A DNA stretch of 64,000 nt from Phoronis australis. Lineage: Eukaryota > Animalia > Phoronida. The notes below the pieces were generated by a model, which made no database searches, was not told the DNA's origin, and worked only from the letters and a program-made list of their open reading frames with translations. Location: NCBI GenBank assembly GCA_002633005.1, contig NMRA01000013.1:1957751-2021750 (forward strand). Reading direction: 5' to 3'. This document shows, piece after piece, positions 11,601-62,658 of this stretch (positions are counted from its first letter, which is position 1; every line of letters starts with the position of its first letter). The position numbers and the translations under genes were made by a program.

Positions 11601-13830
11601 AAAATCTCGAGACCATGTCACATTGGTTGTGCTCTAACCAGTCGGTGAGTTTCTACTGGCTTGACACCATACGCTAACCGTCATTGCACCGTCTTTCAGA
11701 CATCTATTTCACAAATCTTGCGTCGACCCATGGTTGCTGGATCAGAGAAGTTGTCCTATGTGTAAGATGGACATACTGAAGGCGTATGGACTAACTGTGA
11801 GTTTGATTATTGGGCAGTTCTCAGATGATCCTTTGTTTCCCCTCGCTTCCCTCTGACCTGTATGTTGGCAGGTGGGCTTGATATTTTCTTTGTCTATTTT
11901 CATTTTTGGGATGTACGATGCTCCAAAAATATTGATTTCGCTTTTAACAATTGAAAGAAATCTTTTTTCCAGAATGCAAATACTGGCACGAGGGGAAACA
12001 ACGTAATTTTAATTATACCTTGTTGTGCCATTTCCTGTGATTTGTCACCTGAGAAAACAATTATGACTTTTTGATTTCACTAATTAAATATACTTAGGTA
12101 ATAATTGGACACCTGTGCTTGCGTCAGATTTCTGGGCAGAGCTTGGTTATTAACACCTGTGGCCTGTTTTATCAAATGTTGTTATGTCTAGTCTTAGATA
12201 AGACGGTGATTTAAATTTGCACACAATTCATTAACTTTATGCCTTAATAATGAACATTTGTCAGTTGCAATGTTTTACTATAATAGCATGAATATACACT
12301 GTCATATTTATATTAGTGTGTCTACGGCCATCTTGACTGCAATGGGACTGACGACATTTCGTAAAATGGTCCGCTGGTGTATTGAATAGACTGTGTGTAG
12401 TGTTCTTAGTGGAGAATGAGATTGCTGGGCAGTAAAAACGCATAGGTCATTCTCGTGTTGCGTTGACGATGTGAAACTTAATATTATGCTTGTAAATATT
12501 GACTTTTGGCATCATTTTGAAATGAGAAAACGGCAAATCTGGGTTGCATAAGACACCAAAACGTCTGCATCTGATGTTTTTGGTTATGCTGTCATATCAA
12601 TAACATTGCTTAACTTGAATGACATCATTGTGATCTTTCTAGTTAGTATTTAAGTTTATTTGTAACTCTGGAGAATAGTCCAAATTTGGCCTACTTTAGA
12701 AACATCATTTCTCAAAAATCATTGTTTTCCAAAACACTTTTTATGTGCCTACATAAACATAATATCATGTGATCACATATTGTCATCACTTTGTCCAAGG
12801 GTCTGGATGTGTGTGTCTGCTCAATATCTCATAAACCCCAGATCAGATTTTGTCGAAATTCAGCTTAAGAGTGTAGGGCATCATTAGAATGATTCGTTCC
12901 ACTTCTCAATCTGCCCCGTCCGACCAGGGTCAGGGGGAGTGGCTTTTTACGTAATTTTGGGCAAAGGGCATTTCTGGATGATATCGAAAGTACGTTGTTC
13001 TTGTTGAAATTCTTCTTAAAATGTTCCACTTTTGCTTAAGGGCCATAAAAGTTGGACTTAAGTATTTTCATGCCAAGACCATCATAAGTTGCATTTAGTA
13101 GACCCTAATTATTATTATTAGGTGACTGTAATATGGGTTTTGAGATTTAATCTTGCCAAAAGAAATGCCATATGTTTTCGACAAAGTTGTTTGTAATGAA
13201 TCTGCTTTTCTTTAATTTTTCTTAAAATAAATGACTGTGACTTAATTAATATCTGATAGCTAGGTATTGTAGCATTTCTGCTTGAAGAAGTATGAATTAG
13301 TGCTGAGTCAAATTATACAAGTTTTTAGATAATTGGCTAAATGGACAAATTGTGGATTATGTAATAACCTTAATAACGGAACAAGAACAGTTTATGGCTC
13401 CAAAATATGATTTTGTTTGTATGATTTTGCGAAATGTGTTGCTCAAAACAACACTTTTTGGTCACAGGTTCCTGGTGTGCCGGCTAAGACTGCTACGGAT
13501 GACCCTATCGAGATCACATCAACACAAAGTCCTGAGGATTCAGTTGATCCGATCCGTTCCATACACATGGTTCACGTTGAGTCTGGCGTCATATTCCACC
13601 ATCGGCAAGAGAGCCTTGGCTCTCCCAGCAGTAGCTGTAGGGGTGAACAGTTGGACGTGACGCGAAAACGCAACCCGTCCAGTGATAGCAATGCTAGTCA
13701 CTTGAGCATAAAGTCGCATGCATCGGGTTCCGAGTTGGAGTCATTGATTCACGTCAAGAATGCCTCTTTGAACTGCACCGTTGCTGACCAGGACAGCTCG
13801 GTTATAGCGACAACTCACACGGAGATTTGA
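2607..13830 (+). CDS. RNF150: PA-TM-RING-H2 E3 ubiquitin ligase (goliath/RNF130/RNF150 family), 3' five coding exons; 5' exons lie upstream of the window
   Basis: Exons with AG/GT borders and consistent phases: 2607-2851 (end of PA region plus TM helix [38 protein letters not shown]), 9246-9317 ([24 protein letters not shown]), 9697-9779 (CAVCIENF...VVRELPC), 11700-11796 ([30 protein letters not shown]), 13468-13830 (Ser-rich tail, TGA). The RING-H2 C3H2C3 pattern is complete. Exact paralog name is approximate. Confidence 0.93.
5821..6332. mobile_element. Degenerate foldback/MITE-like long inverted repeat in an intron
   Basis: AAAACTTAGGATTGGTCATGAAAGTCC pairs with GGACTTTAATGACCAGTCATAAGTTTT; inner pairs TTGTAGTGAAAC/GTTTCACTACAA, TTGTTTAGCT/AGCTAAACAA, TGATAGGATT/AATCCTATCA. 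Confidence 0.6.
8050..8290. repeat. Minisatellite, ~59 bp unit x4
   Basis: CAGGGACATTGAA..TGTAACTAT..GGAACTG recurs at ~8054, 8113, 8172 and 8231. Confidence 0.85.
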
Positions 13831-15330
13831 TGACTCTGGAGTTCAACCACTGCATTATGCCGATTTGTGCTATGTTATAAGAGGAGTGTGTGTTGTGGGA
13901 CCTGGGAAACGCCAGAACTCAACTGCAGCATATCGGTGAGCCTGCTTGAGAAGATGGAGCATGTACAAGAGTAGACTGCATCAAGTCTAACTTCACTGAT
14001 TGTTGACTTGTGTGACTGTGTAATCAATGCAGCATTGTATAATAAACATCCCCTAATTATCGATTCAAAGGTGGCAATAATATGAATATTATTTCGCTAT
14101 GCATCTGCCTTCTGGTTTTGTTTGTTACTTGTTGAAATCAAAATGGGATTCTCGTTTTTGTGAGCATAATATGGTTCGTTATGACGCGTAGTTTATTGTC
14201 ACGGAGGATATTGAGTGTTTGGAAATGCTCCGTTTTTAAAAGACCATACCATGTATTGAATTATGATTTCTGTCAATTTTTTTTGCTGAAAATAGTCTTG
14301 AATGTAGACAATTTATGCTAGTGTTCAGCTGTGTAGCCATTCTGTGAGCTTCTTCAGTTAGTTTTACCATTGCTTGATGTCAAGTTTCTTAATTTAAACA
14401 CTCTGTGTTTTAAGCCGAACAGATGAGGTAATTACCCCATGGTAGCTTTTGCCAGGAATAGGCGAACTGCACTTTGGTAATGAACTATTGGATGATTGGT
14501 AGTTTTTTATATTGTGTAAGCCATTATCCATGCAAGAACGGGCTCTAAGTGCTATGGTGATGAGTTTGTGTAATGGTTACGTTGGCATGGCAACATCAAA
14601 GTACCACATATGGATAAAAGCTTTCCAAGCATGAGTGAGAGAAGTTAGGTCTGTGTGCACCTGTGATGTGCTCCACAGAACATGTTTTTTGCAAGTTTTG
14701 TGACGTCAAGGAAGAACACACAAAGTCACTAAATGAAAGGTGAACGTTTCACGTATGCTCGCATTCTCACTAGCGACAATTTGGGGAGGTTGAAAGTGAT
14801 GAATTATAGAGGAATATTCACTGTTACAAGGTACCTCGTTGCGAGTGCCTCGACGAGTGACTTGTGTTAGGGATTGTGATTATCGACCAGTACAGACAAT
14901 TTGAATCTTAGTTTGTTGCATTACAACATTACAGTCAAATTGATGATGGTGGCAAATTTTGAACGATTGTGAAAAACGGGGTACAAAACTGTGATTTTGG
15001 AAATTCATGGAGAAGGCAGGTGCAACCTATAACATACTAATGACGATGTAAAGATTATTTTTTCTATGGATATGACTTTTTGTTAGTTGAAGAACCAACA
15101 CATTTCTTGTTTTTGTTACCTGATATACGTAACTCAGTGGCAACCCAACTTCTCAACTCAGACTAAATCAACTGGTTTAATGTTGATTCTTTCATGATCT
15201 TAAAACAGTTTTCTAATTTGTGGATCACACTGGTGCAGCAGAGTGAGTAGTAATTCTCATGTTGTTTTAGTGAAACTTGTCTGCCACAGGTTTTACTCAG
15301 ATATAATTTACAGATTTTGGTTTTAGTAAC

Positions 15331-15415
15331 TACAGAGGTCCCGCATTTTGAGAACCAGTTTTCTCCACTGAAAAAATGGGCATTAAACTGGTTTTCAAAA
15401 CATGGGGCCCCTGTA
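15331..15415. mobile_element. Tiny Tc1/mariner-like MITE (hairpin) in the presumed 3' UTR
   Basis: TACAGAGGTCCC..TTTTGAGAACCAGTTT pairs imperfectly with AAACTGGTTTTCAAAA..GGGGCCCCTGTA; TA-CAG...CTG-TA ends. Confidence 0.5.
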
Positions 15416-17314
15416 CGTGGCTAGATTTTTCCTACTTGCACTTGCTTCAGTTTGGTAGAAAAATAGAGAGAGTTGAGAAATATGAGCTTCTCAACCATGA
15501 AAATACTTCACCACTGTGATGTGTCTTTTCACTTAAGTTTATAAAAGTGCCCTTGGCTGTCAAACTATCAGTCAAAAAGAACTTAGTTGTGATTGATATC
15601 CTTTTTCAATAATTGGACACAAATTGTTCTTTACTTGGGTCAAAAGTTATCCTAGGACACAGGATAAAGTGAGTCATTTCTCCATTCCTGGCTCGGTACA
15701 TAAACTTTGATTTGCAAGGTCAAACCAATACTGAGCCTGATCTCTTGCAAAAACGAACTCTGATATTTCCTAATCAGATACCTAACATTGAAACAAATTT
15801 TATTACAAATTCGAAGTTAATGAAGTAAATTATTTTCATATATGGTAGGGGACTTTATAACCAGGCTTCATCGGTAAATCATTGGTGTTTTGAGACTATA
15901 AGGTGATTTTCCACTCAGTTGTTGATTTAATGTGAACAAGTTTTGTCTTCTCTGGTATTGCTCAGTTTAGTTTCATTTCTTGTTTTTGGTCACCAAGCTT
16001 CAAGTAGATCTTGATGTGTTATGTTTGTGAGTGTTCAAACTGATAGAAGAAATTTGCTTTTTACTCTAAACATTGGTTGTTGCAACAGTTACTATGGGGG
16101 TATTAGTCACGAGGTGTGAAATTGTGACAAATTTGTGTGTGTGTTTACATATCGAGCTATTTTTTGGGTTTATGGTAAACGTTTTTGTTAGGGTCACTAC
16201 AGACAGAAAGCTATGAGCTCAGCTGTCTGGCTCAAGTGAATGATTGCTGAGTTGACAGCAAGTATGACCAGTTCTTTCAGTTGTATTTTCTCACTCTGAC
16301 ACAAGGTGTCAGTTCAGCTATTGTTAACTTTTGGTAGACAGCTTGGCTCATTGCTCCCTGTCTTTGTTTTGGGTGGATTGCACGTCCTCGTTATTGTGCT
16401 CTGGAAAACTCATTTGGAATATGTGTCATCCATGACCATTTTAATATTTCACTTATTGAAGTGCAAGGTCTGTGTTATCAATACGCTATGATAATTGAAT
16501 GTTCATTTCATATTTGGCAGACTTGTAAACCATTTTTCTTTTATGCATATAGTTAGCATTTTCTGAATGCTTTTTTCTAAAGGGTAAATACAGATAGTAC
16601 ATGTATTTTGGAAAGCTTATTGTTAATATTGTCATGATTCTATGTGCACACCATTTAAGGCTGCTGTTGGGTTTGAGTTGTACAAGGTTAGTTCAAATTG
16701 ACGAATAGCGTGCCCCCATCATGTACAATCACATTTATGTGTTGTTTCACAAACTTATAAGTAAAAAACCTGTGTTCCGTTGAAAAAAATAGAAACTTAT
16801 ACCATTTACAACTATAAAATTGGTCTCAACTTCTTTTTATTCAAACGAAAAGTGATTCTTGGTATTACAAAGAACTTACAGTTCGTTACTCCTGAAGACC
16901 ATGCTTGTCACCTAGAATGACACACTGTAACATGTTGTCGTTTAGAGGCTGAGGCTCTAGCTCAGTATCCAGTGAAATCCTTGAATGTTTCGGGCACGTT
17001 TGTTGAAAACCAGCTTCATTTCTGTTCATGGATGGAAATGAAAGAGAACTTGGCAAAACCTTGTTCATTTCAAAAGAAGAGGTATTTTGCCTCTCTGGAA
17101 TTCACATTTTTGATATTCAATTGTAAATATGAATGTTGAAACATTAGTCGTTAGAATTTGAAAAAAAATGGCTTTTTATTTCAAAGTTTTTGATTTTGCT
17201 TCCAAAAATCCCATACTTAATTTCTTCACAAGTGACAGGGCCTGGACTAAAGATAAGGAAGTGTTTTGTTTTTGTGATGTTATTGATAGTCATATGTAAT
17301 GAAATTTATATTGA

Positions 17315-17320
17315 AATAAA
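17315..17320 (+). terminator. Candidate polyadenylation signal of the RING E3 gene (alternative AATAAA at 14041-14046)
   Basis: AATAAA followed by TG/T-rich sequence at the end of a ~3.5 kb T-rich stretch; strand skew flips to A/C-rich shortly afterwards. Confidence 0.4.
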
Positions 17321-17830
17321 TGTGTTGTAAAATTTTAATGCATTGATTATTTCTCAGTGCTTCATGAAGACACTCCATTAGGTAGATTACTGTGATAAAA
17401 AATTAATACTGTAAGTTCTTAAATAATATCACAGAATGTGGAATTACCGGTATAATTGGTCGAACTACAACCATGACTTGTGCAAACCATTTTAATATAG
17501 ACCTAATTTTCCTAAATTTCAGTTTTGTTTAGAAATTTTGCCAAAAAATTCTATTTGCTGTATTACAGTGAAGGTTTTCTACCCGAACCAGTTTGAGTTC
17601 CAGTTCGAGTGCCGTGGGCATTAACCCGTACGAGTACAGCATGTACCTTAATGTTGGACCTATTTGCACCCATCTCTGTATACTGGTTTGTCACTTGGGT
17701 CACTGATTTCTCGAAACATTTTCATTTACCGTCATTCGGCTCAGATTCAGAGAAAAAAGTTCCTTCTAGTACAACAAAAATATCTTCGGTTCAAATTCTG
17801 GCAGTGACTAATGACTGACCAGCATTTGTC

Positions 17831-17876
17831 TCTGACCTGATGATGGTTGAGAAATGCTCAATCGAAACGTGCAGCA
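17831..17876 (+). ncRNA. Degenerate type I hammerhead ribozyme motif, probably from a Penelope-like element remnant
   Basis: CTGATGA (17837-17843), stem II GGTTGAG/CTCAATC, then GAAAC (17864-17868); stems I and III are imperfect. Confidence 0.4.
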
Positions 17877-19329
17877 TATTGTATTGAGGTTTGTGCAAAT
17901 AATAATAATACCAAACTGAATTACATATAAATTTTTAGTGATCATAAACATCTTCTGCACACAACTTATAAAGTAACCCACACACACAATAAACTACCCA
18001 AATTATGCACGGAATGTTTATTTTCCAACATATAAATCAAAAATGACGGAGTACAAAAATAATTAACATCAAATGATGCGTACAATGAAAAGCTGGACTA
18101 ATTCACAAGAAGGAGCTAATGAAACAACAGTAACAACTGTATTAGAGCATAGTTACATGCAAGTGGTCGCCTGCCACCACTGCTGCCCCCTGCTGTTACT
18201 GTGGGTCCTAAATGACTGCACTTGATTGACTTGTATCTCCGGATCACCTGGCTAAGTTATCTGATTGGTTTCCATGACAACTTCTGGCTTACAGACCAAT
18301 AAGATGCTTTATTAAGCTCTTGACCCAGCGGAGCTGACAAAAACGGTTGGTTCTGATCTAAGCATTTTTTGAAAACTGACATGATGGCACAGTAATTTTT
18401 AGGGTTCCTGATTTTCAAAAAGCCAAAATGAGTTGAGATCTCTTTTTACTGGTGCCACCTGATGCCACATAGACCAGGATCCTTTTGAGGTAAAAAAATG
18501 CCAGGTCATTATCCTGGAATACCGAGCAAATTCTTTCACAAAAACTAGCTTAGATACTCAAGTGTAGCTTTTGAAAGAAAAAGATGAGCTTTGCAAAGAG
18601 GACGCTGGCAGGCTTTTTTCGTTAACAGCAGTTTTCAAAGAGTAGAGCACAGACCAGACCAAAAAGAAGCTATTGGCCTCTAGTGCCATCTATTGTAGTA
18701 AATGTGAAGTCGTCCACTGAAATCACTAACATGACACGAAACTGACTGGCTAGCTGTCTCTGAACTCCAAATACTTCAAGTAACAGTAAAATCTCACCAA
18801 TTTCAGAGAAAATAATTACGCTTCTTACGTAATCACATACAACTACAACAACTGAGAACTACTATTTTACTTGTGTAACAATTGTGTCCAAAATTGGTGA
18901 GAATCTACAACCAACAAGTATTCACAAAATAAACAATTATTGTGATTAGACTTAAGAAACAGGCCAATACCTAGAAAATTAGTTTTGACTGAATAAGCCA
19001 ATTCCACAAAAATCATGTACACATAAAATTTCAATCACATAAAATTTCAATCATCCAACAAATTTAAACAAAAAGTGTCCACTGAAATGTACCCCATGAA
19101 ATGTAATAAAATTGACCAATCTTTCCCTGAAAATTCTATGAAATATCGTACTATTAACAAATCTGCAGTGACTGATCATGCTCTTGGTTTTTAGACATGT
19201 AATCAACAGGAATGATGCTCGTCCTGTTGAGTCTCAAAGTTCTAAGATTAACTGGTTGTGGAAAAAGAAACCAAAAGTCACTTTTAGACAAGGCACCACG
19301 TGGGGGGATCCCAGTGGTTAAACTACTCT

Positions 19330-19390
19330 GATTGGTCCTTATAATGAGGATCTTCTCTATATATAGGGTAGAAGACTCTAGTTTATACAA
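19330..19390 (+). promoter_or_regulatory. Viral left promoter P1 (putative)
   Basis: E-box CACGTG at 19297-19302, inverted CCAAT (ATTGG 19331-19335), TATATATA at 19358-19365; splice donor AG|GTAAGA at 19492 downstream. Confidence 0.5.
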
Positions 19391-19483
19391 CGCAACAGAT
19401 AAGTGAGGGCAAGGATTTCAAAATCAACGCGAAGTAAAGATTAAATAAGAATAACCGATACTTGTTGCTATCGCAACCGCGGA

Positions 19484-19518
19484 TATATAAGGTAAGACAT
19501 ATAAAATATTATTCAGTT
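19484..19518 (+). promoter_or_regulatory. Viral promoter P2 for the PLA2 ORF (putative)
   Basis: TATATAA at 19484-19490 with consensus initiator TCAGTT at 19513-19518 (A is 31 nt from the TATA start); ATG at 19523. Confidence 0.55.
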
Positions 19519-19522
19519 GACT

Positions 19523-20113
19523 ATGCCTCACATACCAGGACACAACTATATAGGACCTGGCACTGATTTAAGTAAGCAGTTACCTGCTGTAGATAGAGAC
19601 GACGAGATTGCTAGTACACACGATCATTTGTATAACAGTGCAACAAGTGAGGAGAAGGTGAGAAACGCTGATGTACGAGCGATAGGTGAGTTTACTAGTG
19701 ACTTCTTAAATACTGGAAATGCACACAGTGCTGTTGGAGCATTAGGTATTGGCGCAAAATATATCGTTGAAAGTTTTACAGGAGTGAAATATCCTCAAAT
19801 GTCAAAGAAAAAAGAACGTGATTTTGCTTCAAAAAAACTAGACTGGATTCAACAAGCAAAAGAATATGAAAAAAGAGGACAATATTACGGACTAAGACCA
19901 TCAGGCAATTATTGGCCTAACGGAAATCCAGTAACAAATCCTCAGGAAAGGATTGCAATTCAGACAAGAGCGGAAGAAAATAGACGTCGAGGACGATCTG
20001 GTCAGCCATTATTACCAATGCTTCAACAACCTGGAAAACCAAATTGGGATCCTCAAAATTGTGAAGAAATACTTGGTAAGTATATTTTTTCTATATTTAT
20101 AGATGGAGTCTAA
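19523..20113 (+). CDS. Parvoviral phospholipase A2 (VP1u-type) ORF
   Basis: Ca-binding loop PGHNYIGPG, catalytic helix DDEIASTHDHLY, AD motif, and densovirus-type continuation TGNAHSAVGALGIGAK..E..GVKYP, followed by basic KKKER. Intact; strong donor G|GTAAGT at 20076. Confidence 0.92.
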   Translation: MPHIPGHNYIGPGTDLSKQLPAVDRDDEIASTHDHLYNSATSEEKVRNADVRAIGEFTSDFLNTGNAHSAVGALGIGAKYIVESFTGVKYPQMSKKKERDFASKKLDWIQQAKEYEKRGQYYGLRPSGNYWPNGNPVTNPQERIAIQTRAEENRRRGRSGQPLLPMLQQPGKPNWDPQNCEEILGKYIFSIFIDGV

Positions 20114-20666
20114 AGTAATCGATCTAACTGCTCGTGAGGACAGTGACCAATACTTTGTGGTTCTTTCAAAGGAACACCTGTCTATCCAAAGAGATTTAGA
20201 CGAATTTTATGGAAACAACGGACAAGACCAAGAATGTCCTCAGAAACTGGACATATCAGCGACAGCTGCGAACGACATGGCGGAAACAATACAACTAATG
20301 ATGACGTGGGCATCTTGGCCAAACGTAGTACACGTGACGGAGATCGAAACGGGGATCAGCAGCGTCAATCTGAAAACAATACAAATACACAACAAGATGG
20401 CAGTGCAGGACACCACAATGAGACCAATGATGGAACACTGGCTGGAAATGATTCCGACATCGAAATGGTACAGGCAGCGGAGGCTTTTGACACCGGGAGA
20501 AATATCGAAAACAATGCAAGTCCTAGCCAGGAACGAAAGACTACTGGACAATCGTATATTGAAGAAGACAGATCCGAACAAGAGACGACAAAGTTCTTCT
20601 TCGGTGGAGGACACTCAACGCGACCACAAACGTACCAAACAGAACAATACAACGCAGAACAAGTAG
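20103..20666 (+). CDS. Viral accessory ORF overlapping the NS1 5' end (positionally p15/NS3-like), 187 aa
   Basis: ATG directly follows a pyrimidine-rich acceptor TTTTTTCTATATTTATAG (20102). The ORF is open and sits where chaphamaparvoviruses have p15. No sequence motif recognised. Confidence 0.65.
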   Translation: MESKVIDLTAREDSDQYFVVLSKEHLSIQRDLDEFYGNNGQDQECPQKLDISATAANDMAETIQLMMTWASWPNVVHVTEIETGISSVNLKTIQIHNKMAVQDTTMRPMMEHWLEMIPTSKWYRQRRLLTPGEISKTMQVLARNERLLDNRILKKTDPNKRRQSSSSVEDTQRDHKRTKQNNTTQNK

Positions 20667-22690
20667 AAACTGTAATGCGTACACACTGTATTGATCAATG
20701 GAAATCACTTGTAATTGCATTTGAGGATAAACATGAAAATTGTGACAGAGATATATTAGACGTAGTTAAGGAGATAGGAGCCTTAAAATACAAATCAGTC
20801 GTCGTTAAAGAAATTAGTCAACACGACGTAGTACACTTTCATATTATGATAAATTCATTTCAGCGTATTGACAATTTAAAACGTCAAATATCACAACATG
20901 TTTGGTCGAATGGTTCTCACAACTACATCATGAAATATATCAAAGCAGAATCTGTCAGAAATTTCACCTCATTATTCAAATATATATGCAAAGATATTCA
21001 TCAAATGTATAGTACTAACAACGATTTACTTGACTGTGCAGCCTAGTTTCAAACACCTGAAACAAACAAATTCATGACAAAACCTCAAAAGAAATCACCA
21101 AAAGAAATCATCAAAGATGAAGTCATTGAAAAAATGACCTCAACTGGTGTATATAATTTTGAGGACTTATGTCGTATAGATCAACAGTGGATGAGATATA
21201 GACTGCACATTCATGGTTTTCAAACACTGATTGACAATTGTCGTAGATTTGTACCCACTGTTAAGTCTAGTGAAGACGATCTATTGAGTAGATTTAAACA
21301 TGTTGCACCATCTACAACTTGAGCTGATAATATCCTCAGATATCAAGGTTATGACAAAGCGCAACGAATGCATATTTACAAAAATCTTGCTAAAATTCTA
21401 TCATTTGCAAATGGCAAAGTCAATACAATTTGGTTAAACGGTCCTGCAAACACTGGCAAAAGTTGGTTCGCTAGAGGTATAACAAAATGCTGGGGCTCAG
21501 ATGTAGGTGAAGTATTACCAGAAACTCCTCAATTTATGTGGGGACCATTGGTAGGCAAAAAAGTTGCACTTTTGGAAGAAATATATTTCAACACAGAATC
21601 TACTGAAAGAGCCAAAGTTATCCTAGAAGGTCAACCATGCAAAGTGAATGTAAAAGGAAAACAATGCGAGGACATTAGAGGTATGCCTGTAATTATAACC
21701 AGCAATCATAACCTATGGAGATGGGCAGACGGAGCAGAACAACCAATAATGGCAAGAGTATTCAAAATTATGTTCACTAAACAACATGTTGAAACTTCCA
21801 GACGAAGTAACACCTGTGAGCCATCGGGAAATGTTAGTCCGGGAGACTCCTTCAGCCAGACAACGACTAATTCCACTAACAAGAGGACAAAGACACCAAG
21901 CAGAAGCGGCAGCAACAGCTCGAGATATGGTGATAGAGATAGCACCAAACGTAGGCGATGTGAGGATGGACATGGTAAGAAACGTAGATTCAATGTTGAC
22001 AAGCTCAAGGACTCTCGCAAAGATGTCGGAAATGTTGACATTAGAGGATTCTACTCCATTAGAGGAGAACACTTGTACGGGACAAGTGGGACAAGACACA
22101 CACAGTACAGAATTGGCCCGGACGAATGCGATGAACGATGCTCAAGCGGCACCTCAACCGCAGTTGACGGGACCAGAAACACCGTGGAAAAACACGGATC
22201 CGGCACTACCGTCTCTACAAGAGAAATCATCAGCAACACAACTCAGATGCAACCTGGGCGACCAAGAAATGACACCTCAACAACGTCCGGAACCTTCCGC
22301 CTTACACCTAGCACACAACTTTCACGAACAAATATCCTCAATATCTGGGCTGAACGAGGAAGAGATATTACAATGGATAGAAGATGTACAGATGATGTGA
22401 ACAGCGGAAGGAGGAGATCAAACGGGGGAACCTCCGACAAAGAAACGAAAACAACTACAAGCTCTGCCGCTAGCAGTGGAAGATCTGCTAGTATCTGCAT
22501 CAACAGTAATGCTATTTCACAAGAGTCTGAAAGGAAAAATGACACTTGCGTCGAAGAAGTGCACAAGAGCACAACGTCGAGTACTGGACATGGTTCACGA
22601 TCACGTCGCATCATTGCTAAAGGACGAGAAACACTTGGGAGTGTAGAAAGCTTTCTGAGTGCATTATATCATATACATTCGCGCGAGTAG
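20234..22690 (+). pseudogene. NS1: Parvoviral NS1/Rep (818 codons) interrupted by two in-frame stops
   Basis: ORF-track pieces 20234-21046, 21074-21322 and 21368-22690 are in one frame, with stops TAG 21044-21046 and TGA 21320-21322. HUH motif VHFHIMI, YxxK motif KYICK, Walker A GPANTGKS, Walker B ALLEE, B' KVILEGQPCKVNVKGK, motif C PVIITSN. Confidence 0.93.
21786..22646 (+). pseudogene. NP/NS2-like ORF overlapping the NS1 C-terminus in another frame, with one probable premature stop
   Basis: 204 aa open to TGA 22398-22400. The same frame then stays open for 81 more codons (includes NLS-like PPTKKRK) to TAG 22644-22646. Position matches the chaphamaparvovirus NP ORF. Confidence 0.7.
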
Positions 22691-22705
22691 GAGGACGAAA
22701 CCAAG

Positions 22706-24283
22706 ATGCCGACACAGATATTTAAACATTCAAGATCTGTATATCTGAAAGAACGGGAAAAACCTTATAACAAACAAGCATTCAACGCAGACTGTTACTG
22801 GAGTTATATTCCAAATCAATCACCAGCACTATTCAAAAATTTTGGTGAGCTATTTGCAACAATCAAATCTGCAAGAAGATGGAGAATCCTCAGTATAAAA
22901 GGAACATTGTCTAACATGGTACCACTGCAACAGAAACTAACAATTGGAGGACAAGAAACCATGAACTTGTTCAACAACGCGTACTACTTGATGTGCTATT
23001 CAGATGACCTCAAAGAATGGGTACACTGTAAGTACGATAAAACAAGAGACCTGTACAGCAATGGATGGCAACCTGGTTTTTTCACAGATGGATGCACGTA
23101 CGATCAAAACGGAACAAATGTTAAGAGACTGCTGTTTCCAACAATGCCAAAATATATTCCTCCACCAGGTTTTTTCGAACTAACGAAATACATGAGACCA
23201 GATCCTCTAAGACATCCAGAGAGAATAGGAGAACTAAGACCAGGTAAAAACTCCTATACATTTTCTTTCAAATGGGACCACAGCAAAACACCTGGTGAAG
23301 GATGGGTAGACATGTACTGCAGAGCAAACGTATGGTCAAACAGAGGACAAATAGCAGGAGAAAACATATCGATAACTTACGACGATCCAAATCTATACAG
23401 AATACCAGAATGTTTTGAACCTAAAACTCAGGCGCTATCAGACGACAGAAACTATACAAATGAAACAGATACAAACGAATTGGAATGGCAACAAAGCATG
23501 AAATGGCAATCGAAATCTTTCACCAAACTAGTATTCGGAGCGAACTCAGGCGTTATATGGGCACAAGCAGAAAAACACCAACAACCAAAACAGTTGGCAA
23601 AAGCAAAACAAAATTACGAGTGGCTTAAAGCACGAAAATACGGCGACAGAAATCACCAAGCTGAAGCATTTGCCTATGGAGGAATCGGAAGTTATGAGCC
23701 TCCAGACACATGGATGATATCATTTCCACTACTTCTAGACGGAGACAACGCATCGATCAAATTATCAGCGCAAGCATTCTATCAATCAGAATGCGTAATC
23801 GAATGGGAACCACTGTCACATGACAAACATACAAACTTATATCCAATAAACAGTCAACTCCTATGGTCAGCATTCGAACACAAAATCCGACGATACACCA
23901 ATACAGGAGATGCAGCATTGTTAAACTGCGTCGACTTCATGCCAATGAACAGAAACATACAGATCAACTCAGCGGCTATTCCAGGACACAATCCAGCAAC
24001 ACATGAAGGCGTCAATATAAATTACGAAACACGATACTTAGAAGTACCACAATACGACAGTGTCGGAGGACATATCGGCGTAGCAAACACAACATTAGGT
24101 ACTAGTAAGTGGATACATGATAACAAAGCTAATACAATTTCTTCTAATAAACGAAGACTGTCTACTAAGGACGTATTCACTGAACAGAAACCAGAAGCTA
24201 AAAAATGCAACAACAGCGATTCAGATCACGATGGTTCAGACTGCACGAGCGACGACCAGGGCAGCGAACATGGAGACCACTAG
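22706..24283 (+). CDS. VP: Major capsid protein, chaphamaparvovirus-like, 525 aa, intact
   Basis: Motifs WSYIPN, SNMVPLQQKLTIGGQETMNLFNN.YYLM.YSDDL, DPLRHPERIGELRPGKNSYTFS, P.TWMISFPLLLD match chaphamaparvovirus VP signatures (WHIIPN, NP.P.T.QLAIQG...FTAFNN..Y...Y.D.L, WDPL..P..I.ELRPGKNA..F). No N-terminal PLA2 and no Gly-rich stretch. Confidence 0.9.
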   Translation: MPTQIFKHSRSVYLKEREKPYNKQAFNADCYWSYIPNQSPALFKNFGELFATIKSARRWRILSIKGTLSNMVPLQQKLTIGGQETMNLFNNAYYLMCYSDDLKEWVHCKYDKTRDLYSNGWQPGFFTDGCTYDQNGTNVKRLLFPTMPKYIPPPGFFELTKYMRPDPLRHPERIGELRPGKNSYTFSFKWDHSKTPGEGWVDMYCRANVWSNRGQIAGENISITYDDPNLYRIPECFEPKTQALSDDRNYTNETDTNELEWQQSMKWQSKSFTKLVFGANSGVIWAQAEKHQQPKQLAKAKQNYEWLKARKYGDRNHQAEAFAYGGIGSYEPPDTWMISFPLLLDGDNASIKLSAQAFYQSECVIEWEPLSHDKHTNLYPINSQLLWSAFEHKIRRYTNTGDAALLNCVDFMPMNRNIQINSAAIPGHNPATHEGVNINYETRYLEVPQYDSVGGHIGVANTTLGTSKWIHDNKANTISSNKRRLSTKDVFTEQKPEAKKCNNSDSDHDGSDCTSDDQGSEHGDH

Positions 24284-24957
24284 TACTATTTGACGGAATC
24301 GCCAGAAGTGAACTCAACACTGAGTACCGACGCAAACGATGGAACCAATTAAAAGACTTTGTTAATAACACTATTGTACCTAGATATGGCAATAACGAAG
24401 AATACACTGCCTTCATTGTGCATGATTTTTGGAAAGAACAAAAAAATGCAATTGAGGATATTGTCAACCAAACTTGTAATCCAGATATATATAGACGAGT
24501 ATTGATATACGTATCAGATATGATATACTATGAACACGGTTCAATGTGGAACTATTATATGTTCAACATATTTTATGAGGACATTGAAAATTTCTTACAA
24601 CATGTAACTAAAGAAATTAGACACGATGTAGCTACAATATTTAGAACATTAACAAAGTGTGAAGCTGTATTTATAGATGAAGACTTACCAATACATGTAA
24701 TTGATGAAATGATAGATGATATTATATGGAATAATTCTGTAACTTTACTCAGTAGATTGAAACAGAGATTGAGGAACAAATATAATTACCACTCAAGAAA
24801 CTTTGGGGTGCGAATGATCAAAATCGTACGCAATTGGTCCCTTCGTGACTGTTTCTATCATAGAAGAACAGGACGTCGATTACATGATGATGCTGTAGTA
24901 GATAGATACTTTGAACTAGATGAGGACATTTACAGACATATTAACCGGAGAGTTTAA
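24205..24957 (+). CDS. Orphan viral ORF downstream of the capsid, 250 aa
   Basis: Intact 753-nt ORF overlapping the VP end by 79 nt and ending 44 nt before AATAAA. Viral-like base composition; Arg-rich termini. Confidence 0.7.
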   Translation: MQQQRFRSRWFRLHERRPGQRTWRPLVLFDGIARSELNTEYRRKRWNQLKDFVNNTIVPRYGNNEEYTAFIVHDFWKEQKNAIEDIVNQTCNPDIYRRVLIYVSDMIYYEHGSMWNYYMFNIFYEDIENFLQHVTKEIRHDVATIFRTLTKCEAVFIDEDLPIHVIDEMIDDIIWNNSVTLLSRLKQRLRNKYNYHSRNFGVRMIKIVRNWSLRDCFYHRRTGRRLHDDAVVDRYFELDEDIYRHINRRV

Positions 24958-25001
24958 TAGTTTATCTTTGTAACTGTATGAATTGTACTTGTATGGATTC
25001 T

Positions 25002-25007
25002 AATAAA
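25002..25007 (+). terminator. Viral polyadenylation signal
   Basis: AATAAA after the last viral ORF, preceded by repeated TGTA elements. Confidence 0.7.
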
Positions 25008-25176
25008 AATTGTCCTCACTCTAACTGGCCTTGTATATACATGAGTCTTCCACACTAATTAATTATATGACGTCAAAATGACATCACAAGTCACATGATC
25101 CATGTGTTTCTTTAATCGGGCTCCCGTGGCGCCATCTAGCGGTTCTACGTCATGTATATATTCCGTCTATATTATC

Positions 25177-25231
25177 GGTCAAAGGTCATCTGCTTAAGCG
25201 CGGTTACCGCGCGAGCGGATGACCTTTGACC
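25177..25231. repeat. Parvoviral right-terminal hairpin (telomere remnant)
   Basis: GGTCAAAGGTCATC (25177-25190) is the perfect reverse complement of GATGACCTTTGACC (25218-25231). Inner stems GCT/AGC and GCGCGG-TTA-CCGCGC with an asymmetric TAA/G bubble. Confidence 0.85.
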
Positions 25232-25807
25232 AAAGTAAAAGTTGGCTTGAATGTAGCAGTTCAAAATGCCCACTGCAAATACCCAGAAAGTAAAGGTTCA
25301 CATAGCACATGTAAGCATGCAAATGCATTGTTGAATAATTTGATCTGCATCCGCAGTCACTGAATATTCATTTCATAGAACTGTCAAGCTACCTTACTGG
25401 TTAACACAATGTTTGAGGTTAACCCTGTAGCCAAAACACTGGATTTATTACATAAACAGCCTAATTGTCAACAAAACATAACCATAACATATTTTTGCGA
25501 ATCACATGTCTTGGTGCAGCATTACTAAGCCAAAGCAGACCTTCATGAATCATTTAATCCTAGAAAGCTAGAAAACACAAAGTTTGAGGTGTATAGACAA
25601 TACGAGGGATTGTCAGAAGCTATCCAACAGAATATAGTTGTGCTTTTAATTAAGTTTGTGTTAACGAAGGACTGCTACGTAACTATACTGATTAAAAAGT
25701 CTGCTTAATTTTGATTAGAAATTCATCAAAGGCTAATTTTGTGCTCTCATTACTTCCATGACAAAGAAAGGTGTGGTAACATAACGAATCCTAATGGGAA
25801 ATGAAAG

Positions 25808-26086
25808 GTGGAAAGGCAAGCACCCTCCATGAGGGTAAAGGCAACAACACCAGGTGGACATCGCTGTAAGATGTTCTGCCCTCCACCTAGCTTTGTCTAT
25901 ACGCATCTTGGGAGCAGGACAAAAAAGCAACGACACAGCGGCTTCAAGATGACAACATGTGATTACGTGGAGAAGTTGCTGTTGAAAGCAGACCAAGATA
26001 GTGTGCAATTCAAGGGAGTTGTCAGCGACAGTTATTGGTCAAAGTATTCTGTTGTTGGCAAAATTGATGTGTTGCAGGGCAAATGG
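25808..26086 (+). pseudogene. Transposon SWIM zinc-finger ORF remnant, 5' half (continues at 38911-39020)
   Basis: ..VQFKGVVSDSYWSKYSVVGKIDVLQGKW joins in frame to CKHVGALLF after the second (TG)n. LLEYKESG..IPEDIVWTSQERAWG follows after a frameshift. Confidence 0.6.
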
Positions 26087-26654
26087 TGTGTGTGTGTGTG
26101 TGTGTGTTTGTATTTGCGTCAAAGTCAGGACCTAAACTTGTTCGCACACCAACGACGTGAGGACTTTTTTCAAAGTCAGGACTTGCACTCGAGTCCTCAC
26201 ATCGACATGGCTATTTTCCTATAATTTACGATGCCACTTTTCAAAATTTGTATTTTTGAGAACGTCCCCAGATAGTCGGAAAAAATCTAACCTTGAAACA
26301 CACGTAGCACTGTTTCATCTGCCTTTGTGTTCATGCACACTATTGACTGAAAATTGTGCTTAAAGTTAACCAATAGCAAGACGCCATACAATGGTCATAC
26401 AATGCAGCCAATCAGAGAAGCCGATAGAGATCCCAATGTAAGGTGTCGCTTCAGTCGTTAGCAAATGGTTGCCAGCATGGCATCTCGAGGAAAGATGTTG
26501 GTAAGTTTTGTACTTCTTGGAAAGGATGACTTTTAAGGAATCTCCCGTGAACTATGCAAGTAACTTCAGTTCTAGCAAATCTTCTTATGCATGTCATACT
26601 TAGACATAATCTCGGACTATGAAAGGTCCATTGGTTGGTAATCTCGCTGCTCTC

Positions 26655-41685: not shown

Positions 41686-43397
41686 AACTAGAATTAAAAA
41701 CAAATTTACCAACATACGAGATTAGCACAGCATTAGAATGCCAGAAACAAATTTCTACTTGGAACTTTTCCTTCATAGTCACGAAGTAACACAAAGTATA
41801 CACCTGAAGACCTATGAAAATACAGAGGTCAATGTGAAATATTTAAATTGCCACTAGAGGCATACCGGTAGTCAGAATCATCCTAAAGTCGTCATCGTCC
41901 GTTGTCAACATCACATAAATACACTTGTTAAATTTAGTAAAGATCCTGCAAACGGTTTGGGAGATACAGCCATGGGCGCAAAAAAAAACTGCCACTAGGA
42001 GGCTCCACAGTAATCAAAGTCATGGGAAATTCAGCGTCAACCGTCCTCTTCATAGTAAGAACATACATGCCAATTTTCACAATCATACTTTGAGCGGTTT
42101 GGTTGATAGAGGGGTGGACGCCAAAAAACAGACTCAAAAACAGTAAAAATGGCCACTGGGTGTCACAAACTAGGTCGAATCCATCCGAAAACGGGAGAAT
42201 AGCGTCATCGCACTAATAGGTGCCTACATACCAAATTTCATGAAAATCCGTTAAGGACTTGTGAAGATACAGAGGTAAACGTAAAAAAATAAAATTGCCA
42301 CTAGGGGGCACACTGGTAGGCGGATCCGTCCAAAAGTCGTCATCGTCTGTTGTTAACATCATATAATTACACTTATTAAATTTCGTAAAGATCCTGCGAA
42401 CGGTTTAGGAGATACAGCCATAGGCGCAAAAAAAAAAAAACTGCCACTAGGAGGCGCCACAGTAATCCAAATCGTCTGAAAATCATTGTCAGCTGTCTTC
42501 TTTATAGTAAGCACATACATGCCAATTTTCACAACCATCCTTTGAGCGGTTTGGTTGATAGAGGGGTGGACGCAAAAATACAGACTCGAAAACAGTAAAA
42601 ATGGCCACTAGGTGGCGCAAACTATGTCGAATCCATCTGAAAACGGGAGGATAGCGTCATCTCACTAATAGGTGCCTACATACCAAATTTCATGAAAATC
42701 CGTTCAGGACTTTTGAAGATACAAAGGTAAGCGTAAAAAAACTAAAATTGCCACTAGGGGGCACACCGGTAGTCAAATCCGTCCGAAAGTCGTCATGTTC
42801 CGTTGTTAACATCATATAAATATACTTACACAATTTCATAAAAATCCTGCGAACGGTTTAGGAAATACAGCCATAGGCGAAAAACAACAACAAAACTGCC
42901 ACCAGGAGGCGCCACAGTAGTCGAAATCGTCGGAAAATCATTGTCAACCGTCCTCTACATAGTAAACATATACATGCCAATTTTCACAATCATCCTTTGA
43001 GCGGTTTGGTGGATAGAGGGGTTGACGCACAAAAACACACTCGAAAACACTAAAAACGGCCACTAGGTGGCGCAAACTATGTCGAATCCATCTAAAAACG
43101 GAAGGATAGCGTCATCTCACTAATAAGTGCCTACACACCAAATTTCATGAAAATCCATTTAGGACTTTTGAAGATACAAAGGTAAGCGTAAAAAACTAAA
43201 ATTGCCACTAGGGGACACACCGGTAGTCGGATCCGTCCGAAAGTTCGCACATGCCGTCCCATTCATGAATGGAACATATGTGCAAAATTTCATGAACATA
43301 TGTCAAAGGGTTTTGGAGATAGAGCAGCGGACGCCGGACGGACGCCGCCCATACGGAGATGACGGCGTCCACATATAAATATGTGGGCGCATAAAAA
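41686..43397 (+). mobile_element. HINE/Helentron-like non-autonomous element with internal ~450 bp tandem array (3 x ~150 bp subunits)
   Basis: Unit starts (CCACTA) at 41851, 42298, 42751 and 43205; GGAC-type microsatellite at 43329-43345; 3' palindrome GCGTCCACATAT-AA-ATATGTGGGCGC (43365-43390) followed by an A-run. Confidence 0.7.
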
Positions 43398-60200: not shown

Positions 60201-62658
60201 TGTAGCCCGCAACACAAGAAAATGCGATGTAATGATCTAGGTGTGCATTGTACCCAAAGAAATTAACTCAAGCAGTCAAGCAGAGCGTGTTTTAATATTT
60301 AGCTTAGCACTTGCTTGCATCATCTGTTAAAAAACGTTCGAGAATTGTTTGGGTAAAACCGATATGTCACTCGTTGGAGTCGCCGGGTGAGTGGATGCGT
60401 GACCATAGTGTAACAGCTATTTTCTGGAAGATTCGGGGTGTAAGGGTGCGAATGTGTTCACTATCAGTGGGTCATTTTGACTTTAAAAACACCAATTATG
60501 ATTAGTTAAATAATTTCTCTTAAAAATAATGCATAAGTTTTTTACGGTATTAGAAACTTTCGGAAATTAGTGCCAATATTTATTTCTTGCCGATGATATG
60601 TTACCCGTTTCATGAATAGATAGGTCCCAACTAAATATCTTTGATGACAGCCGGTACACTATGCAGCGCGATTTCTTGGCCGCGTACTATCACTGGTTGA
60701 GTTTTTTTATTAGTCTTTGATTCACGGTTTTCACCTGTACAAAGAAGTTTGGATTCCTGTTGAGGCCGGAGAAGATCTGTACCGCGGGAAAGAAATAATG
60801 CAATCCCGCTGACAAGTACGCTGCGTCTGTTTTCAAAGTCCGGACCCGCGTAGTGGGGCACAGCCCTCGCAAGAGCAGCAAAACCTTTGTGTTCTTTTTG
60901 AATCGCGGCATAAGTTTGAAGTGTATACGGACATAACGGTGAGGCTCGTGGTCTACAAATTCAGGACTGTCGGATCTTTCAATCGATGAATTGGAGACGT
61001 TAGAACTGTAGGTAAGGCATTTTTCGCATGTAGTTCATGGGCGCTTAATTTAGCGAAGTCTGAAAACGTGTTGGGGCACTTATTGGGGCATGGGGGCTTA
61101 TTAGGGTGAATAGCGGCAGAATTACATACAGTAGCATAGTTTAATGCACACAAATCACACGTCGTGCAAACCAATCGGCCATTCCACATACCTTAATCAA
61201 TACCAATAGCCTTTGCGCACCCTAATTTCCGGACATGCGCAATCGTTAAATCGATTCGGTTGCAACTCCGCTATTAACTATGGGTCTACGCTTACATAAA
61301 CCAGCCAATATCTACCAAACTAGTAATCAGAGCCATATGCTTTAAATCAGAGAAATGTAGAGGAAATTATGAACTATAGAATGCGCATGCTCACATACCT
61401 TAACAACATTCTAGGTCTCTTACAATTTCTGAATGAAAATCACAAGTGTCCTGGGGTGAGTGCACTCTCCTAGCGCAGCCCAGCTGTAACTTATTATAGT
61501 CGATTGAGTACACCCAACACATTGTAACAGGATAATTGGCATGTCATCTGACCTCGCCTAGTGCAGGATAAGGGTAAAAGAATACGCAGAAACAACACTG
61601 TGCTTAGAAGCAACAGATTTACCTTGAAAAATCATGAAGCAGAGAGTACAGACTACCCTGGGCCATGTACTCAAACACCAATAGAGGGTGTGACGGAGCG
61701 GTGCAGACACCAAGGAGCCGGACAACGCGCGGGTGTTGTAGTTCATGAAGGAGACTGACCTGTAACAAGCCACAGAGGGCACTGACACAACAACAACAAA
61801 CAGTACCTAGTGATCTGCTCATGTAAACAGTACCTAGTGATCTGGTCGTGTAAACAGTACCTAGTGATCTGGTCGTGTAAACAGTACCTAGTGATCTGCT
61901 CGTGTAAACAGTACCTAGTGATCTGCTCATGTAAACAGTACCTAGTGATCTGCTCATGTAAACAGTACCTAGTGATCTGGTCATGTAAACAGTACCTATT
62001 GATCTGGTCATGTAAACAGAACCCTATTGGCAAAAAAAATCTCCCCATGCCCAGAACTTCGAGGCATTATTCAAACGAGAGTCCAATCCGAGCATTAATG
62101 ATTGTATTCAGATAGTCACATGGGACCCACTAACACCTCCATGCAGGTAAACTACTTTCAGTTATCAAAGTATCACAACCCGAGTTATGAGAGGACTCAC
62201 TCATCAGCACCAACAGGTCAATATCGAAGACTCCCATTGCTGTGTGAACTATAGCCAAGTCTATATGGAAGGCTGGCTTCTAATTTAAGCGTTGTCAGAG
62301 TTAACTAAATTGAAGGAGGACTGGTTCATTATACAATAACTTACAAATAATTCTAGGCAATATGCTGCAACCTATTTCCAGTAACGAAATAACACACAAT
62401 ATCATGATGAAAACAAAAATTCTACCTACCATTTCAACCAATTATTTTTTAAAATGTCCTCAGCTGCATTACGTCAAATTAATTTTCAAGCTTAATGTTT
62501 GCACAGTGACCGTTTACATGGCGGTATCAAGCTTACTTCTGCTGCAAAGTAGTTAATGTCTTGGGCCGCCAATGGTAGTTTGAGCTTTTTCACAGCAACC
62601 TCCAAGCTATTGAACACTCCTCTGAATATACAACTGAAGGCACCCTGGCCCAGTTTGT
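54250..62658 (-). CDS. TKL-group protein kinase-like (probable pseudokinase) with WASP-like tail motifs; 5' end not identified
   Basis: Phase-compatible exons 62658-62537 (LGQGAFS, VAVKK), 61759-61623 ([20 protein letters not shown]), 58563-58390 ([13 protein letters not shown]), 56750-56567 ([17 protein letters not shown]), 56059-55940 (RP..P..CP..L..LI..CW...P..RP.F) and 55173-54250/54256. Confidence 0.9.
57407..58254. mobile_element. PIF/Harbinger MITE
   Basis: TIRs GGGCTGTTCCAGCAAAATCTGTGTGGGAGGG / CCCTCCCACACGGATTTTACTGGAACAGCCC with TAA TSD on both sides. Confidence 0.85.
58762..59394. repeat. Tandem duplication of a ~340 bp intronic unit; second copy interrupted and resuming at ~61300-61346
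   Basis: TTAACCCTTATCCTGCTGA..GTGCTGAGCTAAGTAGGTCACC..TCTGGCTCCAGCCA at ~58763 and ~59104; tail GCCAATATCT.CCAAACTA.TAATCA.AGCCATATG at 59066 and 61304. Confidence 0.85.
59395..61276. mobile_element. Non-autonomous TIR DNA transposon (possibly ISL2EU-like)
   Basis: Perfect 18-bp inverted ends TAATAGCGGAGTTGCAAC / GTTGCAACTCCGCTATTA; CpG-rich interior; no intact ORF. Confidence 0.75.
61798..62018. repeat. Minisatellite, 27 bp unit x8, next to a kinase splice acceptor
   Basis: AAACAGTACCTAGTGATCTG(C/G)TC(A/G)TGT repeated eight times. Confidence 0.95.

Follow-up and report, generated by a model that had tools for sequence, protein, structure and literature searches.

An endogenous chapparvovirus-like element of Phoronis australis with a Densovirinae-type phospholipase frame and its predicted splice to NS2

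The window analysed here, a 64,000-nt stretch of the Phoronis australis genome (contig NMRA01000013.1), contains a parvoviral element with frames for a phospholipase (PLA2), NS1, an NS2/NP accessory protein and a capsid protein (VP), together with further ORFs, predicted splice signals and a terminal hairpin (Table 1). An ambisense genome is ruled out, as VP and NS lie on the same strand. To the left of the element, plus-strand exons at 2579-2911 and 13411-13830 are taken by us to belong to a host gene resembling a Goliath/RNF130-type RING ligase. To the right, a multi-copy repeat begins at 26122, 0.9 kb beyond the element, with contigs of ~9.86 kb at 6-7x the single-copy depth. Two tandem arrays were seen, at 41845-43244 (3.1 copies of ~455 nt) and at 61798-62023 (8.4 copies of 27 nt); the minus-strand exon beside the second is presumably kinase-like. 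Ten host ORFs searched against Pfam gave no clear gene name.

Table 1. Features of the endogenous element, in window coordinates.
Feature	Position	Strand	Remarks
Endogenous parvoviral element	19290..25231	+	Single insertion of 5,942 nt; both junctions have 3 letters in common
TATA-like box, predicted left promoter	19358..19364	+	Consensus match only; first ATG downstream is the PLA2 ATG
Predicted donor D1	19492..19493	+	8/9 consensus; upstream of PLA2 ATG
PLA2 ORF	19523..20113	+	196 aa, first ATG at 19523 (translation); codons 1-184 are predicted exon 1
Densovirinae-type PLA2 domain	19523..19798	+	Residues 1-92; calcium loop, H33-D34, Y37, D50; predicted activity only
PLA2-ORF tail from M93	19799..20075	+	92 codons; resembles chapparvovirus NS2 exon 1; kept in P0019
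Predicted phase-1 donor D2, pyrimidine tract, acceptor abutting ATG 20103	20076..20102	+	
p15/ORF1-slot ORF	20103..20666	+	187 aa; overlaps NS1; ATG abuts predicted acceptor; assigned by position
NS1 frame	20234..22690	+	818 codons; HUH-type motif, SF3 helicase; in-frame stops 21044, 21320
NP/NS2 frame	21750..22400	+	216 codons; overlaps NS1 C-terminal part; predicted acceptor 21802
Capsid VP	22706..24283	+	525 aa, chapparvovirus type, no PLA2; AG 15 nt upstream of ATG
ORF6-like ORF	24205..24957	+	250 aa, intact; overlaps VP end; place and size as SsChPV ORF6
Right terminal hairpin	25177..25231	.	Arms 25177-25194 and 25214-25231, 18 nt, 94%; z -5.8

PLA2, NS1 and VP are parts of one insertion in the animal genome. 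An empty-site contig from run X5, which comes from another sample and another study, joins 19289 to 25232 without any cover within the element; this is one contig with a depth of 7.6 and 39 letters on the shorter side of the joint. Since PLA2, NS1 and VP are all missing from the empty site, the three arrived jointly and the insertion is polymorphic. In another sample, single contigs from two of four runs (X2 and X3) span 19239-26078 with a depth close to that of the unique flank on the left (9.5 vs 8-9 and 46 vs 48). The 19289-25232 joint was rejected as an intron, its ends being non-canonical in every register of the 3-letter overlap, and a free virus contaminating the assembly was ruled out by the junction contigs and the single-copy depth.

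The insertion and the 3' arm of the right hairpin share their final base. The left end has no comparable hairpin (z -2.2), and a left terminal hairpin was probably lost at integration. Inside both ends lies an imperfect 80-nt inverted repeat (19364-19442 and ~24981-25057; score 55, against 40 for the best of 500 shuffles), each arm of which is preceded by an AT-rich TATA-like stretch. It may be what is left of matching termini, or else an inward right-end promoter.

Compared with the window, the runs of the sample behind X2 and X3 show 13 differing positions in 19290-20111 and only 1 in 20112-25231. In one allele a 1-nt deletion near codon 95 of the PLA2 ORF breaks the frame. Allelic differences in this one sample are dense over 16000-20111 and nearly absent over 20112-26078, with contigs crossing 20111; we read this position, where the PLA2 ORF ends, as a haplotype boundary, although this cannot be proved. 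The same 13-to-1 imbalance would speak for an assembly chimera, or for the PLA2 ORF having inserted separately from its neighbours, the latter being an outcome that the earlier note had itself named as fatal to its reading. We hold both to be exceedingly improbable: single contigs cross 20111 in three runs, the empty site lacks all three genes at once, the tail of the ORF and its donor belong to the chapparvovirus scheme, and a full-length ortholog is found in a separate sequencing run, on a 5,592-nt contig. The element is a near-complete, still polymorphic, decaying fossil.

The element in 19290-25231 is almost certainly chapparvovirus-like. NS1 matched PF01057 (E 9.9e-23) and, weakly, the Rep family PF23343 (E 1.5e-4), with HFH at residues 201-203; its N-terminal piece found no match in the PDB. 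VP had no Pfam match at E<=0.1, and so no PLA2 domain, and its sole PDB match among 177,635 sequences at E<=10 was 9NEK, the capsid of Syngnathus scovelli chapparvovirus (SsChPV; E 3e-13, residues 32-194). Chapparvovirus motifs were drawn from the S5 Fig alignments of PMC6999912. In the six frames of the window, the NS1 helicase-end, VP and NS2-core motifs each occurred once, in the expected ORF, and in 0 of 100 shuffles, the NS2 core motif lying at 22158 with identical spacing. The NS1 C-terminal motif fits yet is non-specific (5 matches, 1.4 expected).

The 187-aa ORF in the p15 slot had no Pfam match, and its weak likeness to chapparvovirus p15 was seen by eye only. An open frame such as the 250-aa ORF after the capsid arose in 0 of 5000 shuffles; this ORF is rich in aromatic and acidic residues, gave no match in Pfam or NCBIfam and only chance-level Atlas leads (<=0.82), and its structure model reached a pLDDT of 41. 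A word-based protein search, which covers near lengths and shared words only, returned no relative of VP or of the helicase, and no related locus was found in the viral and metagenome contigs scanned. The element is filed as working like a chapparvovirus, and is not placed in any named Hamavirinae genus, because it measures 5,942 nt and has a PLA2 ORF, whereas chapparvoviruses measure 4-4.5 kb and have no PLA2.

In the textbook account, parvoviruses escape from the endosome by means of a PLA2 borne on the capsid; chapparvoviruses lack one. The earlier note had placed a PLA2 ORF at 19484..20113; the ORF is real but begins at 19523, two in-frame stops preceding this ATG within that range. The intact motifs it described were confirmed as YIGPG at residues 9-13 (Y9-G13) and H33-D34-x-x-Y37, with D50 also present, and the ORF matched PF08398 (Phospholip_A2_4) with 29.1 bits for a cut-off of 23.9 (E 1.3e-6). 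Residues 1-94 matched 582 library proteins at E<=0.001, the best of them with 61% identity and E 1.6e-27, and D34, Y37 and D50 were invariant in 86 of 86 alignment rows. The match to parvoviral PLA2 is far above chance expectation. The predicted structure has a pLDDT of 85-96 over residues 1-90 and, over ~90 residues, superposes to within 1.2-1.3 A on PLA2 domains from the VP1 proteins of named densoviruses; in a fold search against solved structures it found no clear match (best Z 7.8, generic helical bundles). As the earlier note had also observed, the ORF precedes by some 2.6 kb a capsid gene without PLA2, its stop at 20113 being 2,592 nt from the VP ATG at 22706.

The relatives of the enzyme point to Densovirinae. 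Denso_VP4 is carried by 38 of the best 150 PLA2 matches (582 in total), including 5 of the best 10, and a Parvovirinae capsid family by none of these 150. The best matches are capsids of 540-730 aa with the PLA2 at residues 1-92; the resemblance to an ambisense VP1u proposed earlier is not supported as put, the nearest sequences being compact capsids with the enzyme at the extreme N-terminus. The element's own VP matched none of 151 PLA2-bearing proteins at E<=1, namely the best 150 and P0001, the only PLA2 relative returned by the word-based search limited to near lengths and shared words. In a PLA2 tree built by a quick method (152 rows x 98 columns, no rows dropped), 10 of 149 branches were starred; the element's domain fell in no starred clade, and P0019 was not its supported sister. 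Such a tree can neither identify the donor nor decide whether the capture was independent. Nevertheless, the pairing of a Hamavirinae-type backbone with an enzyme of Densovirinae type supports a capture, and the PLA2 was very probably acquired from Densovirinae by recombination. The incongruence between subfamilies that had been anticipated is thus borne out by homology, with NS1 and VP of chapparvovirus (Hamavirinae) type.

Two further observations were made among the PLA2 relatives. P0053, P0082, P0120 and P0123 form a starred clade (99) of proteins of 245-262 aa that have a parvoviral PLA2 at the N-terminus but lack a capsid domain, and two of the four are annotations in true-bug genomes; they are possibly domesticated or endogenous PLA2 genes. 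In P0024 a parvoviral PLA2 is fused to a mitochondrial carrier domain, and this may be a gene-calling chimera.

The PLA2 ORF is an open frame by itself, yet it terminates in a conserved predicted splice donor. The donor D2, at 20076, is in phase 1 and lies 27 nt before the AG|ATG at 20103 and 1726 nt before the in-frame acceptor at 21802. In all 12 chapparvoviruses tabulated in PMC6999912 the NS2/VP donor splits its codon after the first base, and in Mouse kidney parvovirus (MKPV) and two bat viruses 21-34 nt separate it from the downstream AG|ATG of p15; the geometry of D2 and p15 in the element is that drawn in S5B of the same paper. Chapparvovirus NS2 introns, which lead from NS2 exon 1 into the NP frame, measure 1612-1685 nt (PMC6999912), and the predicted intron of 1726 nt exceeds those of all the viruses tabulated. 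The acceptor at 21802 is 16 NS1 codons past the helicase end, where MKPV has 19, and the Arg codon setting is the same in both. It is pyrimidine-poor (8/15), and 15 further in-frame AGs are present in 21751-21999. From D1, a predicted splice to 20103 would take out all of the PLA2 ORF within a 611-nt intron.

The part of the ORF that follows the enzyme resembles NS2 exon 1. Its length of 92 codons compares with ~89 for the MKPV exon (PMC6999912), and its opening is like that of NS2 exon 1 by eye and by a short motif. This motif, defined post hoc with both sides in view and expected 0.14 times per window, follows the PLA2 in 1 of 128 testable PLA2 matches, P0019. The latter is a protein of 194 aa, open to its stop, encoded on a 5,592-nt Logan contig from a separate sequencing run. 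It is 44% identical to the PLA2 ORF over the full length, and the tails share 47% identity over 66 aa (E 1e-14). The likeness halts at G-K-Y, where the donor at 20076 leaves its footprint; beyond it, the ends of both proteins read as translated pyrimidine tracts, and in one allele of the element a 1-nt insertion falls in this stretch.

The capsid frame offers no comparable partner. There is no in-frame acceptor that keeps the whole VP start, the first in-frame one entering at about VP codon 16, and the AG at 22691 joined to the PLA2 donor leads to a stop after 10 codons. A PLA2 spliced to the whole VP was excluded on this ground. Judging from these signals, the PLA2 ORF is probably spliced to NS2. 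Since the donor and acceptor geometry, the tail and P0019 agree, and no acceptor leads to the whole VP, the most likely product is a predicted PLA2-NS2 protein of 184 + 198-199 codons (~383 aa) outside the capsid. The ORF that the earlier note called standalone would most likely be exon 1 of this spliced protein. A PLA2 fused to a chapparvovirus NS2 was not found in a full-text literature search, which misses most subscription papers.

The enzyme could also be made as a free, unspliced 196-aa protein, or D2 could be used with an AAG acceptor at 20172 that has 12/17 pyrimidines, is in frame with NS1 and would yield a PLA2-NS1 protein; the product would be non-structural in both cases. The frame is indeed open to the stop both in the window (196 aa) and in P0019 (194 aa), and 7-13% of MKPV transcript is unspliced (PMC6999912). 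Against this, the similarity to P0019 ends where the donor begins, leaving two ends that look like translated pyrimidine tracts, one of them with the 1-nt allelic insertion, and an AAG acceptor such as 20172 has no counterpart in the chapparvovirus scheme as given in PMC6999912. We regard these products as unlikely and retain the predicted splice to NS2.

RNA was examined in three stranded runs of the same species from one study, of which ~18-19% each was read. The element was covered at a depth of 0.7-8 antisense and at most 0.6 sense. First mates fell on the plus strand over the element and on the minus strand for the host transcript at 13436-17359; since these strands are opposite, the element is read antisense, and in the samples examined it is read only so. 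No splice joint within the element was present among the 15 of 21 joints listed for the three runs. In all three runs a minus-strand host transcript of low level covers 17800-26050, extending across the element and into the flanks on either side; near 17300 it converges on the 3' end of the plus-strand host transcript. Antiviral small RNA could possibly arise from it.

On balance we favour the view that the locus is a chapparvovirus-like endogenous element in which a captured densovirus PLA2, fused to NS2 exon 1, forms part of a spliced non-structural protein with a likely role in egress. On this view, recombination would have brought in a densovirus PLA2 and set it in frame ahead of NS2 exon 1, as one fused reading frame. 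Three RNAs can be proposed, the scheme being inferred from that mapped in chapparvoviruses (PMC6999912). An RNA that skips D1 (19492) would start translation at the PLA2 ATG and, through D2 (20076) and the acceptor at 21802, reach the NP frame. An RNA spliced from D1 to 20103 would drop the PLA2 and make the p15-slot protein and NS1, and one spliced to 22691 would yield the capsid from its own ATG. By analogy with vpORF3 in AdSDV (Acheta domesticus segmented densovirus), PLA2-NS2 may damage host membranes late in infection and so aid virus exit. MKPV NS2 went undetected by mass spectrometry (PMC6999912).

On the same analogy, action at egress seems rather more plausible than action at entry. 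The PLA2 protein, whether spliced to NS2 or not, might be carried in or on virions and serve endosome escape, as the earlier note supposed in calling it an escape module. Its nearest relatives are capsid-borne entry enzymes, its catalytic motifs are intact, hamavirus capsids have no PLA2 of their own (PMC12115719, PMC6631224), and in scindoambidensoviruses the capsid gains its PLA2 by splicing from a separate ORF (PMC10267136). In the element, however, no phase-1 acceptor preserves the VP start, AG 22691 included, and no splice keeps the whole capsid N-terminus in frame, so that a capsid-borne enzyme is unlikely. The ChPV capsid starts at Met1 in the core, that of SsChPV has no disordered N-terminus, and MKPV transcripts gave no N-terminal capsid extension (both PMC12115719, as far as available); AdSDV virions are without PLA2 activity (PMC10267136). 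We consider an entry role quite improbable, and egress remains the preferred assignment for the predicted PLA2-NS2.

Two papers, PMC13426907 and PMC10267136, report a detached PLA2, and in the available portions neither shows its splice partner or its action. The element makes two questions testable, namely how a non-capsid parvoviral PLA2 acts and what NS2 does. It is also a chapparvovirus-like genome grown to 5.9 kb, and a near-complete fossil, still polymorphic, that the host reads antisense. We suggest only tentatively that an unnamed invertebrate chapparvovirus-like lineage made its own capture of a densovirus PLA2, a third beside those of AdSDV and the megaparvoviruses, and turned the conserved NS2 into a phospholipase. 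If this is true, NS2 would be marked as a membrane-going or virion protein and the target of the megaparvovirus donor would be explained.

The closest arrangement is that of the Swazi bat-associated megaparvovirus 1 lineage (PMC13426907, 2026), described from 11 viruses and 8 beetle endogenous elements that have a 5'-most PLA2 ORF ending in a donor, then NS1 and a PLA2-less VP. That paper proposes a horizontal capture of PLA2; the splice partner is unnamed, and neither NS2 nor NP is mentioned in the portion available. AdSDV, taken earlier as the only exception to a capsid-borne PLA2, is therefore not the sole precedent. The element could be a divergent member of this lineage, both descending from one ancient capture: it shares the first ORF with its terminal donor, the existence of endogenous copies and a hamavirus-like, PLA2-less VP after NS1, whose 525 aa lie within the 504-577 aa reported. 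It differs in that PLA2 and NS1 are not separated by a second large ORF, its NS1 frame has 818 codons vs 561-611 aa and an additional ORF follows VP, where nothing is named in the megaparvoviruses, whose genomes measure ~6.4 kb. Their termini are likely identical; in the element the only candidate for such palindromic termini is the imperfect 80-nt subterminal inverted repeat. Its p15, NS2/NP and ORF6-like slots, which set it apart from the megaparvoviruses as described there, point to NS2 as the splice partner and bring its organisation closer to SsChPV. A shared capture strikes us as doubtful, and we lean slightly towards a capture independent of the megaparvoviruses, with which the element is not filed. 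The shared-capture reading concerns origin and is compatible with the PLA2-NS2 mechanism.

SsChPV (Ichthamavirus; 9NEK; PMC6631224, PMC12115719) has a homologous capsid, an NP and an ORF in the ORF1 slot. Its NS of 807 aa and its VP-end ORF of 239 aa compare with 818 codons and 250 aa in the element, but it has no PLA2, a VP of 367 vs 525 aa, a genome of ~4 kb vs 5.9 kb and a fish host (PMC6631224). The long NS and the VP-end ORF hence fit Ichthamavirus by size and place, and the short VP (367 aa) of that genus is not found here. Mouse kidney parvovirus and other Chaphamavirus (PMC6999912) share with the layout predicted for the element two 5' donors, a phase-1 donor before the AG|ATG of p15, a two-exon NS2, an acceptor just before the VP ATG and the NS1, NS2 and VP motifs; their NS2 exon 1 begins at its own Met with no enzyme ahead, in a 4.4-kb genome. 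In AdSDV, vpORF3 is likewise a Densovirinae-derived PLA2 off the capsid; it is non-structural, the capsids have no PLA2 activity and a help in egress has been proposed, which the present reading borrows by analogy (PMC10267136). AdSDV differs by its Brevidensovirus-type, bipartite backbone and by a PLA2 located downstream of VP under its own promoter (PMC10267136). Densovirinae VP1 proteins (PF08398 + PF02336) contain a domain 54-61% identical to that of the element over ~92 aa and with the same start position, but there the PLA2 is the N-terminal extension of the capsid protein. For the megaparvovirus lineage, a hamavirus-like backbone preceded by a 5'-most PLA2 ORF and its donor has already been published; what is new is the predicted splice to the NS2 accessory protein.
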